Below are positions 2,635 through 5,600 of a DNA stretch of 47,713 nucleotides, one piece after another. A program made the translations under genes and the position numbers. The stretch's first letter is position 1. Every line of letters starts with the position of its first letter. Source of the stretch: Candidatus Altimarinota bacterium (GTDB lineage: Bacteria > Patescibacteriota > Gracilibacteria > BD1-5 > UBA2023); the NCBI GenBank assembly GCA_043722085.1, contig JAYSPL010000126.1, forward strand, positions 1-47,713, read 5' to 3'. The notes beneath the pieces are model-generated. The model had not been told where the DNA came from and did not search any database. It was given only the letters and a program-made list of their open reading frames with translations.

Positions 2635-5600
2635 ATGCCCTACGATCACACTTCTGTAGAAAAAAAATGGCAAAAATTCTGGGATGAAAATAAAACATTC
2701 AAAACGGAAAACTTAACCCAGAAACCCAAAAAATATATCCTTGATATGTTCCCCTATCCGAGTGGCGCAGGCCTGCATGTGGGTCATCCAAAATGATATA
2801 CCGCGACGGATATCGTCTCTCGCTACTACCATGCGACGGGGCGCAATGTCCTTCATACGATGGGGTTTGATGCCTTTGGGCTTCCAGCCGAGAACTACGC
2901 GATTAAGACTGGAACGCATCCCGCTATCACGACGGCTGAGAATATTGGCGTCTTTACTGATCAGCTGAAGTGACTGGGATTTTCCTATGATTGGGATCGA
3001 ATGGTGGACACTACGGATCCAGAATATTATAAGTGGACGCAGTGGATATTCCTGGAGTTATTCAAAAAATGACTCGCCTATGAACAGGATCTCCCGATCA
3101 ACTATTGTCCTCATGATAAGACAGGACTCGCCAATGAAGAGGTGATCAATGGTTGTTGTGAGCGTTGTGGGACTCGAGTCGAGCGTCGTGCGATCAGGCA
3201 GTGGGTATTGCGTATCACGGAATATGCAGATCGGCTCCTCTCTGACATGGATACGCTTGATTGGCCAGAATGAATCAAAGAAATGCAGAGAAATTGGATT
3301 GGACGCAGTGAAGGATGTGAATTTGATATGAAAAAATCTGATGACGAAAGGATATGTATTTCTGTCTACACGACCCGTGTTGATACCGTGTTTGGTATGA
3401 CGTACGCCGTACTCGCGCCCGATCATCCTCAGGTTCAGGATTTTATCACAACAGAACAAAAGGTTGCTTGTGAGGCATATATTGAAATGGCAAAAGGGGA
3501 ATCTGATCAGGATCGTACCAATGAAGGGAAGGAGAAGACAGGGGTATTTACAGGCTCATATGTAATCAATCCATATAACTGAGAATCTGTTCCACTCTGG
3601 ATTGCTGACTATGTTCTGGGTTCATATGGAACCGGTGCCGTGATGGCGGTTCCAGCCCATGATGAGCGAGATTTTGAGTTTGCGAAGAAGTATAATCTTC
3701 GATCACCAATGGTAATTGCTCATATATGAATGCCTTCGGATAATATCTTAAAATTAAATGATATTTGAATAGTACATGATTCCAATGATTCCAATGATTC
3801 CAATGATTCAAGTATTGCATTAGGATGGTTTAATATTGAAGAATTATTTACAGAAGATTGAATCTTATTTTGAATGCATGAATATCATTGAATTTCATCC
3901 GCTGAGGCTCGTCAAATATTTACACAAAAAGCCGAATCCGAAGGTTTTGGTCGTAAGAAAATCAATTATAAGCTCAGGGATTGGCTCTTTTCTCGTCAGC
4001 GGTATTGGGGCGAGCCGATTCCACTCATACATATTACGCATGAAGATTTTGCGAAGCTTCCATGTCTAGGGGAATATAAGAGTATTCCATACCTCACTCT
4101 TTGAGGGAAGTCTACACCAAGAACAAATGAGAATATTAAGTATTTTGATCCAGTAAATGCTATTGTGAAACACTGGTCAAATGATTCTTATATTGTTCTC
4201 ACATTCAAAAATGGTGAAAAATGACTCGTCTGAGGTTCTGTCGAGAGTGGTGAGACTCGTGAAGAGGCAATTGTTCGAGAAGTACAGGAAGAAACAGGAT
4301 ACAAAAATATCAAAATCGAAAAATTAGTTATTCCAGAAATATATAGTCGATGATATAAGGAACGTAAAGATCTCGAAGAAGAAGCTCGTGAGTCTATCTA
4401 TTTTGTTCAGATATTGAATAGTGAAAAAGTGAAATCTTTTATTGAGGAGTGAATAGTTTCTGTTGATTGGATTATTTGAGATGAGGTGGAAAATACAATA
4501 ACACTCGACCATCATAAATTCTATTGGAACTTTTTCTATAAAGCACCCTTTTCATATCGTGTGAAGAGAAAAAATATAGAATATCTCTATAGAGATGGAG
4601 TAGAATTTTCTCAAGTATTCGACGGGCTTACCGGAAAAATCATCATTGACTCTCGTCTTCCTCTGACACTTCCACAAGTTGAAAAGTATGAACCACTTGG
4701 TGACGGACTGTCTCCACTTGCTGGTGTCAGCGATTGGGTCAATGTACAACTTGCGGACAATCTTGTCGGAAAGCGTGAAACCAATACGATGCCGCAATGG
4801 GGCGGAAGCTGTTGGTACTATCTTCGTTATATGGATCCTAAAAATCCTGATGCGCTTGCCAGTCCAGAAGCACTTGCGTATTGGGGAATGGTAGATGAAT
4901 ATGTCGGTGGTGCAGAGCATGCAGTACTGCATCTTCTTTACGCTCGTTTTTGGCACAAGGTACTCTATGATATTGGCGTGGTTCCACATGCTGAGCCGTT
5001 CCAGAAACTCACCAATGTTGGGATGATTCTCGCGTACGCGTATGAACGATGAGATGGGGGACTTGTTGCGGTAGATCTCGTTGAGGAACGTGATGGGAAA
5101 TTCATTGAAAAAGAAACTGGAAAAGAGGTCAAGCAAGTAGTGGCCAAGATGAGCAAATCCCTCAAGAATGTTGTCAATCCCAATGATATAATTCGGGAGT
5201 ATTGAGCTGATACGCTCCGCCTCTACGAGATGAGTATGTCCGCTTTTACTGATACGGCTCCTTGGAACTCTGATGCTATTATCTGAGTTCGGCGTTTTCT
5301 CGATAAAGTTTATTCTGCATTTACGGTTCAAGTAGAATTAAAGAATGAGAATAATAAAACTGTAGCTATTTCGATTGATTGATCCCATACATATCGCACA
5401 AAAGATGATATGAAATCGATGAAGCTCCTGCATAAAACTATCAAAAAAGTCGGAGAAGATATTGTAGACTACAAGTTTAATACCGCTATCTCAACTCTTC
5501 AGATTCTTATCAATGAATGAGTTCCTGTTGATCCAGAGTTCTCGCTCGAGTGGCAAGAAAAATTCCTGATACTTTTGCATCCATTTGCTCCTCATATAGC

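Follow-up and report, generated by a model that had tools for sequence, protein, structure and literature searches.

The leuS gene of a 47,713-nucleotide contig from a Candidatus Altimarinota bacterium (JAYSPL010000126.1, positions 1–47,713; the whole stretch is called the window here) encodes a leucyl-tRNA synthetase (LeuRS) that carries a complete Nudix domain of autonomous size, translated as part of the enzyme, within its catalytic core. The architecture of bacterial aminoacyl-tRNA synthetases is generally taken to be conservative. In the window, a complete enzyme from a different superfamily sits inside an essential synthetase, and comparison with relatives shows this to be one of several states in a rapidly evolving system: LeuRS genes of the candidate phyla radiation (CPR) gain, lose, move and swap enzyme domains. 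The reading that we favour, with a probability of roughly 0.6, is that of a genuine, translated insertion in two layers, the Nudix domain being an autonomous, active pyrophosphohydrolase that is tethered to LeuRS and takes no part in the mechanism of leucylation or editing. In this reading the first layer is a β-rich stalk, common to Gracilibacteria/Absconditabacteria-type LeuRS, which expands a short loop between the strand bearing RDW..WGEPIP and the LPxxLP motif. The second is a 157-residue Nudix module at the tip of that stalk; it belongs to a Patescibacteria/CPR-specific Nudix family, within which it was relocated or duplicated to reach this position, here termed site B.

A Nudix domain between two catalytic-core motifs

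The insertion at site B comprises exactly 210 residues (aa 464–673, nt 4024–4653, forward strand), as established from translation and alignment. Its upstream border is the catalytic-core motif RDW..WGEPIP (aa 448–463, nt 3976–4023, forward strand) and its downstream border the motif LPLTLP, of LPxxLP type (nt 4654–4701, forward strand). These borders, the residue count and the coordinates of the Nudix box agree throughout with an earlier note on this DNA, made from the sequence alone, which had claimed a complete Nudix domain inserted in frame inside LeuRS; profile searches, fold prediction and conservation all bear that claim out. The note also gave a spacing of roughly 15–25 residues for the LeuRS of E. 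coli and B. subtilis at this position, and the canonical spacing is indeed short, at about 16 residues in more than 40 CPR LeuRS and in the public protein P0237.

Three parts can be told apart within the insertion. Alignment of site-B segments delimits a stalk N arm of 20 residues (aa 464–483, nt 4024–4083, forward strand). It is followed by the Nudix cargo of 157 residues (aa 484–640, nt 4084–4554, forward strand), which hidden Markov models (HMMs), AlphaFold and Foldseek identify as an N-terminal β-hairpin and a complete α/β/α Nudix domain. The last part is a stalk C arm of 33 residues (aa 641–673, nt 4555–4653, forward strand), a predicted β-meander recognised by alignment and by its similarity (z = 9) to the short insert of locus L005.

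Searched alone, the insert matches Pfam NUDIX (PF00293) with E = 2.2e-10 and 41.1 bits, against a gathering cutoff of 21.1. In the whole 1086-residue protein the NUDIX match (37.8 bits; aa 528–621, nt 4216–4497) stands beside tRNA-synt_1, tRNA-synt_1_2 (the editing domain, 1.6e-57) and Anticodon_1; the earlier note had pointed to NUDIX and tRNA-synt_1 as the profiles to try, and both match the product translated with table 25. An HMM of the CPR LeuRS-Nudix family described below covers aa 500–636 (nt 4132–4542) of the window open reading frame (ORF) with 146 bits (E = 1e-44), and all sequence matches of the insert in the PDB are Nudix proteins. The Nudix box (aa 534–556, nt 4234–4302, forward strand), described at the outset as letter-perfect, fits GX5EX7REUXEEXGU at every specified position, and the predicted catalytic helix (aa 541–553, nt 4255–4293) lies on it.

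An AlphaFold model of aa 444–684 has a mean pLDDT (predicted local distance difference test) of 85.9 and a pTM (predicted template-modelling score) of 0.77, and a model of the orthologous fragment P0001 reaches a pLDDT of 86.2. The window model runs from a short N-terminal arm through a β-hairpin, the α/β/α Nudix core and two C-terminal helices to a C-terminal β-meander, and contains the separate Nudix fold that had been anticipated. Foldseek returned 395 PDB matches for it at E ≤ 1e-3, with Nudix enzymes among those listed. Among the matches listed, the closest structures are E. faecalis 2azw and the Aquifex diadenosine tetraphosphate (Ap4A) hydrolase 3i7u (target TM 0.78–0.80, root-mean-square deviation (rmsd) ~3 Å), with NudI/YfaO, the Chlamydia Ap4A hydrolase CT771, E. 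coli RppH and the T. thermophilus diadenosine hexaphosphate (Ap6A) hydrolase Ndx1 also near. Membership of the Nudix superfamily is therefore supported by the box, by a profile score above the cutoff and by a predicted α/β/α sandwich that presents the box on a loop-helix-loop.

The insertion is translated and under selection

The leuS gene (nt 2635–5895, forward strand, with its TAA stop at 5893–5895) was assigned through its code-25 translation of 1086 residues, its Pfam matches and its motifs. Under table 25 the ORF is unbroken, with 23 in-frame TGA codons read as Gly and a single terminal TAA; table 11 gives only a string of short ORFs in this region and was dropped. Code 25 is supported by TGA at conserved Gly positions inside universally conserved LeuRS motifs, for example HVGHPKG-Y, and by the insertion itself, which contains six in-frame TGA codons (nt 4102, 4222, 4231, 4351, 4450 and 4477). 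At insert positions 67, 70, 110 and 143 the window has TGA and the corresponding Gly of its relatives is encoded by TGA or GGN, an alternation that confirms both the genetic code and the in-frame translation of the insert, as the uninterrupted frame had first suggested. The public protein P0124, a table-4 translation, differs from the window LeuRS at the 23 TGA positions and nowhere else, having Trp there for Gly.

Motifs of the host enzyme are intact, namely HVGH (the HIGH motif) at aa 48, KMSKS at aa 838, and the two editing-site motifs, TTRVDTVFG at aa 246 and GTG..HD.RD at aa 332, so the host LeuRS looks functional. With HIGH, KMSKS, the motifs of the connective peptide 1 (CP1) editing domain and an anticodon-binding domain, it is a bacterial-type LeuRS of class Ia.

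That the arrangement could be an artefact, whether a chimeric assembly, a frameshift, a separate gene fused by mistake or an intein-like element removed after translation, is extremely improbable. An identical 1086-residue product is encoded on an 18-kb Logan contig assembled independently from run SRR23617255, which effectively settles the concern about a misjoin raised with the original observation. Orthologous inserts with the same site and junctions were found in other LeuRS genes (L001/L002, L003, L004, P0125 and P0156), at least six lineages of differing sample origin sharing the junctions, with identities of 62–71% to the window insert (P0125 71%, P0156 62%). The reading frame is continuous across the insert, and the insert is under purifying selection: between L001 and L004 its dN/dS is 0.086 (dS 0.79), against 0.054 for the adjacent core. 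An intein would be expected to begin with Cys, Ser or Thr and to end in His-Asn followed by Cys, Ser or Thr, whereas the insert starts with Leu-Ile-His and ends with IIIDS (Asp-Ser) followed by Arg; no Hint or intein Pfam match was found in the window LeuRS. Nothing speaks for an artefact, the sole oddity being the lower GC content at third codon positions (GC3) of the insert. It forms part of a trough over the inserted segments (window nt ~3535–4700, 0.22–0.30 against 0.39–0.53 in the LeuRS core), and it recurs in the orthologue L001 (6157–6786), where site B has 0.24 and the cores 0.38–0.40.

A family of Nudix modules in CPR LeuRS

Scanning one genome for each GTDB species with an insert alignment returned 80 loci, almost all from Patescibacteria/CPR, and in 74 of them the Nudix match is flanked by the N- and C-terminal halves of LeuRS. 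Nudix-in-LeuRS is widespread in Patescibacteria/CPR, and a Nudix of the same family is present in 33 of the 120 closest LeuRS; the window LeuRS is not a singular oddity, where the earlier note had known of no Nudix module embedded in an aminoacyl-tRNA synthetase. A homology search with the insert alone returned only three fragments (P0001–P0003), because public gene calls split code-25 genes; table-11 calls cut the leuS genes of relatives into such pieces and hide them from protein searches.

The family was defined here from 48–84 sequences. Its EETGYKN motif was used as a scan pattern and is thus invariant in the genome-scan set partly by construction, while outside the pattern conservation across the family remains high, with the box Gly at 98%, Arg at 88%, the first Glu at 85% and a downstream Lys at 95%. 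The window module carries the family signature (profile match, REx2EETGYKN, a Lys about 22 residues past the box and a C-terminal Trp) and belongs to a subtype that diverges at three family-conserved positions, with F for R and W, and EE for NR. At E ≤ 1e-30, window-type modules were found in only four proteins among 1.84 billion representatives, and a metagenome scan for further site-B relatives found none, just four unrelated free Nudix proteins of 264 residues; the subtype and its site are therefore rare.

Eighteen of the 84 sequences in the family depart from the strict box (Gln replaces the first Glu, for instance), and some copies may be inactive; the Nudix fold might then do no more than bind nucleotides as a sensor, or have a structural or protein-interaction role. 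For the window this is very improbable, as the catalytic Glu and Arg residues of the box are all present and are invariant in all six site-B orthologues, the insert evolves with a dN/dS of ~0.09, and REx2EE and the downstream Lys are near-invariant in the family.

Free-standing homologues of ~160 residues number in the hundreds (profile E 1e-43 to 1e-54). In the one free-standing example whose neighbourhood was checked (P0023), the neighbours are Sua5/TsaC, murA, def and fmt, and leuS is not adjacent. P0023 and P0033 (L089, 8001–8474) are free 157-residue Parcubacteria Nudix proteins mislabelled 'leuS' in NCBI, a name presumably transferred from embedded copies.

One module, several insertion sites

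Insertion points, defined by landmark mapping and direct reading of the sequences, place this one Nudix family at four or more sites in LeuRS, mostly inside the editing domain. The common state is site A (~67 loci), a loop that belongs to the C-terminal portion of the editing domain. Site B, after WGEPIP, is confined to the window clade. Site C, seen in L015, L023 and others, precedes the CP1 linker and is bounded by YADRLLxDLD and LDWPE; site D, in the Saccharibacteria locus L061, is bounded by ESPLA..W and RETNTMPQW, downstream of LPxxLP. Locus L061 was considered as a second independent case of site B and rejected, since its sequence places the Nudix at site D. More than one family match can occur in a single LeuRS, with three in L017 and two in L038 (Saccharibacteria/Paceibacterota; sites C and A).

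Site A of the window itself (nt 3727–3849, forward strand), located by landmark distances and sequence, holds no Nudix. The distance between landmarks M1 and M2 is 111 residues, compared with 75–86 in cargo-less LeuRS and 217–253 in those with a Nudix. Only about 25 residues are extra, among them (DSN)3, encoded by a 9-bp tandem repeat at nt 3778–3810 (GATTCCAAT three times plus a partial copy) that falls at the very loop where most CPR LeuRS hold their Nudix. The sequence gives no ground for a remnant of a site-A Nudix: the similarity there is explained by shared LeuRS segments, and no recognisable domain remnant is present.

A stalk with exchangeable cargo

The window insert is nested. Its arms (aa 464–483 and 641–673) match the cargo-less stalk of P0126, P0127 and L005, and aa 484–640 are the cargo between them. 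The N arm is common to cargo-less relatives (P0126: LIHISNEDYTNLPRTSWKWA) and to relatives with other cargo, and the C arm is homologous to that of the same three cargo-less relatives. Few of the 120 closest LeuRS keep the canonical ~16-residue loop at site B, in which a CxxC knuckle is frequent; most have an expansion of 50–75 residues. The same arms enclose other cargo elsewhere: an unrelated Lys-rich segment of ~140 residues in P0137, P0207 and P0213, and an ASCH-like segment (…ETRVLNPDE…) in P0242 and L074, neither with a Pfam match. In L036 and L037 a Ser_hydrolase domain occupies site B.

Turnover is rapid. The nearest LeuRS cores, P0126 and P0127 (core distance 0.11), have an empty stalk, with neither Nudix nor other cargo, and the shallow clade around the window in the LeuRS-core distance matrix contains the states none, A, B, A + B, CP1 cargo and other site-B cargo. 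The 33 Nudix-bearing members of the 120 closest LeuRS hold 31 copies at site A and three at site B, P0125 having one at each. LeuRS can do without the module, which is missing from the remaining 87.

In a neighbour-joining tree of 84 Nudix cores with capped distances, the site-B modules of the window, L001, L003 and L004 form a clade (97% bootstrap) that is sister to the site-A module of L005, a Gracilibacteria metagenome-assembled genome (91%). The window-type subtype is also found at site A, in P0158, P0163, P0200 and P0218, while L001 and L004 carry both A and B modules, those at A being of the ordinary CPR type. Together, the tree and the spread of the subtype across sites indicate that the module was relocated or duplicated between sites within the gene family, in either direction.

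Further enzyme domains occur in related LeuRS. A Ham1-like ITPase (PF01725) lies inside the anticodon-binding domain of P0165 (aa 819–906), P0191 (aa 1109–1204) and P0207 (aa 962–1038), and this Pfam family is present in about 11 of the 120 relatives, in Gracilibacteria-type LeuRS. Ser_hydrolase (PF06821, an α/β-hydrolase) is inserted in or fused to LeuRS in L015 (within CP1), P0125 (aa 275–459), P0137 (aa 268–456) and P0156 (aa 32–208), at the entry of CP1 or at the N-terminus. The CP1 entry also holds a GNAT acetyltransferase in P0134 (aa 266–354) and a PD-(D/E)XK_3 nuclease-like domain in P0191 (aa 251–363), a protein with three accessory domains (PDDEXK_3, Nudix and Ham1).

What the tethered module may do

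No NCBIfam equivalog cutoff is approached by the insert (YtkD 30 bits versus 154, NudI 25.5 versus 95, MutT 25 versus 98, NudC 22.5 versus 158), so no specific substrate can be assigned, and the insert does not fall among the equivalogs of MutT-type 8-oxo-(d)GTPase, ADP-ribose pyrophosphatase, NADH pyrophosphatase (NudC) or RppH. The nearest Foldseek matches are enriched in Ap4A/Ap6A hydrolases, RppH and NudI, while ADPRase and NudC structures align poorly (rmsd ~10 Å). These ApnA (diadenosine polyphosphate), RppH and NudI neighbours suggest a part in the housekeeping of nucleotides or dinucleotides, as does the presence of Ham1, a second house-cleaning type of NTP pyrophosphatase, as alternative cargo of LeuRS. 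In our favoured reading the module would act as an autonomous, Mg2+-dependent pyrophosphohydrolase, its substrate most probably of the dinucleoside-polyphosphate or (d)NTP house-cleaning type. It would be tethered to and co-expressed with an essential, constitutively made enzyme, and the benefit of the tether may simply be to secure expression in tiny genomes.

A closer involvement with the host was proposed in the earlier note, in which a built-in pyrophosphohydrolase might clear Ap4A or mis-activated adenylates. The latter would be chemically atypical for a Nudix enzyme; an aminoacyl-adenylate has no pyrophosphate bond, and hydrolysis of Leu-AMP, an acyl-phosphate, is accordingly unlikely. 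The former can be put more broadly: the Nudix domain might act in cis, clearing the Ap4A, diadenosine triphosphate (Ap3A) or dinucleoside tetraphosphates (Np4N) that LeuRS makes from Leu-AMP and ATP or other NTPs, or might sense or control the local adenine-nucleotide pool, and so would recycle scarce nucleotides where de novo synthesis is impossible. Its structural neighbours include the Aquifex Ap4A hydrolase, Ndx1, CT771 and RppH bound to Ap4A, and Ap4A hydrolases are among the PDB matches of the family profile. Many family members have aromatic residues at +17/+18 past the box (56 of 66 and 47 of 66 boxed members, respectively), a pair that resembles the Tyr signature of ApnA hydrolases. 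Dunn and colleagues are said to have proposed in 1999, as a rule for such hydrolases, a Tyr some 16–18 residues past the box. The window has Tyr at +14 and +18 (EIYSRGY), though aromatics at these places are not specific. The embedding of the family in LeuRS at several sites likewise implies selection for physical linkage. However, the module is missing from the closest LeuRS and from most other relatives, its four or more positions conserve no fixed geometry to the synthetic site, free-standing copies are common, and the same host takes unrelated cargo (Ser_hydrolase, GNAT, PDDEXK). LeuRS is not known as a major producer of Ap4A. Tight coupling to LeuRS chemistry is thus not favoured, and we consider it possible but unlikely.

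A further candidate substrate is RNA. As a pyrophosphohydrolase of the RppH/Dcp2 kind, the module could use LeuRS as a platform for binding tRNA and work at the ends of tRNALeu or of other RNAs, removing a 5'-triphosphate, a nucleotide cap or a toxin-added 3'-pyrophosphate. A PDB search with the family profile is led by the RNA-decapping enzymes AvrM14-A/B (5e-9) and Dcp2, with Ap4A hydrolases beside them, E. coli RppH ranks high among the structural neighbours, and the best NCBIfam match is YtkD, an 'RNA deprotection pyrophosphohydrolase', though far under its cutoff. Sites C, A and B flank the linkers of the editing domain, and in known LeuRS-tRNA complexes that region faces the acceptor end of the tRNA. 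All of these matches are weak and under family-specific cutoffs, free-standing homologues with no RNA-binding partner are abundant, no RNA-binding extension is evident, and the module is patchily distributed among close relatives; an RNA-end enzyme is decidedly unlikely.

Several observations weigh against the favoured reading of an autonomous, tethered pyrophosphohydrolase. One Nudix family has been embedded in LeuRS repeatedly and independently (other synthetases were not systematically searched), which argues for a functional link to LeuRS or tRNALeu that an autonomous passenger leaves unexplained. Two linkers form the base of the editing domain, sites C, A and B all fall near them along the sequence, and the three may share a spatial location near the tRNA acceptor end. 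The structural neighbours are only 12–21% identical to the insert, and the compact Nudix fold gives no reliable substrate class. The AlphaFold model of aa 444–684 was built from the public table-4 sequence, with Trp at six Gly positions and an alignment of family members. Finally, the GC3 of the insert is markedly low (0.27, against 0.40 in the rest of the window LeuRS), with foreign origin and weaker codon selection as candidate sources.

A broader proposal would join the turnover of cargo to a role in cis. Patescibacteria LeuRS might be a dedicated insertion platform whose conserved surface stalks and loops (CP1 entry, editing-domain loop, site-B stalk and anticodon-binding domain) swap in-frame enzyme cassettes on short evolutionary timescales, the cassettes being Nudix, Ham1/ITPase, serine hydrolase, GNAT, PDDEXK and unknown folds. 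The Nudix cassette would then act on a product or ligand of LeuRS, such as ApnA/Np4N derived from Leu-AMP or tRNALeu with a blocked end (5' or 3'). We regard this as rather unlikely; if true, it would reveal a hitherto unknown layer of quality control, for nucleotides or for tRNA, that is coupled to aminoacylation, and perhaps also a new kind of in-frame domain mobility in an essential gene.

Neighbouring features, annotation and significance

The window leuS lies between a T4SS_pilin-like gene (PF18895) upstream (nt 2140–2526, forward strand) and a CofD-family gene (PF01933) downstream (nt 6043–7041, reverse strand), and in the relative L001, too, type-IV secretion genes (PrgI/TraC-like) precede leuS by a few kb. 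Scans of the window for tRNAs and Rfam families were both empty. Within LeuRS, a segment of ~33 residues before KMSKS (nt 5029–5142) resembles an insertion of the leucine-specific-domain type; the M5–M6 distance is 76 residues in the window and many relatives, and 43 in L001, L004 and others, which lack the segment.

The architecture is visible in databases and is apparently uncharacterised, the window being a rare placement of it. Precomputed Pfam matches already mark NUDIX on public proteins, including P0124, and public records name Nudix-bearing proteins just 'leucine--tRNA ligase', for example WP_275670616.1 of the co-cultured Candidatus Absconditicoccus praedator. In the open-access full-text literature we found no description of a Nudix module in LeuRS or in any synthetase, an absence that is not proof. 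Annotation is affected in several ways: free Nudix genes are mislabelled 'leuS', code-25 LeuRS are fragmented under table 11 or mistranslated under table 4, and at least one cargo-bearing LeuRS, P0217, which has a Ser_hydrolase domain, is labelled 'alpha/beta fold hydrolase' in NCBI.

CPR hosts cannot make nucleotides and are largely uncultured. In the embedded copies, nature supplies a 'Rosetta stone' by which a connection of this CPR-specific Nudix family with tRNA charging, or with the housekeeping of nucleotides, can be tested, and experiments are feasible in Ca. Absconditicoccus praedator, which has the site-A version.

Comparison with known systems

Close counterparts of the window protein are LeuRS with the module at site A, such as that of Ca. 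Absconditicoccus praedator (P0172, WP_275670616.1). They have the same host enzyme and the same Nudix family, but their insertion lies inside the CP1 editing domain, whereas that of the window lies in the catalytic core after WGEPIP, with no Nudix at site A. The free CPR Nudix proteins, annotated as NUDIX hydrolase, MutT, YjhB or leuS, belong to the same family, with REx2EETGYKN, the downstream Lys and the C-terminal Trp in common. They are 42–44% identical to the site-A copies in LeuRS and only 23–33% identical to the divergent window subtype, and they are independent genes, unlike the embedded module.

Compact Nudix hydrolases of known structure (3i7u, Ndx1 1vc8, RppH 4s2y and CT771 4mpo) resemble the insert in fold (target TM 0.65–0.80, rmsd ~3 Å), in their complete box and in a core of ~135 residues. 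They are, however, free proteins, with the low sequence identity given above, while the window domain sits inside LeuRS and has an additional N-terminal β-hairpin and a β-stalk. Among synthetases, the leucine-specific domain of LeuRS and the appended domains of eukaryotic enzymes are likewise modules accommodated in surface loops of class I enzymes with the core undisturbed. No previously known insertion of a bacterial LeuRS is an independent enzyme from another superfamily. Unlike those insertions, the cargo in the window is a complete catalytic domain that is also found as a stand-alone gene.

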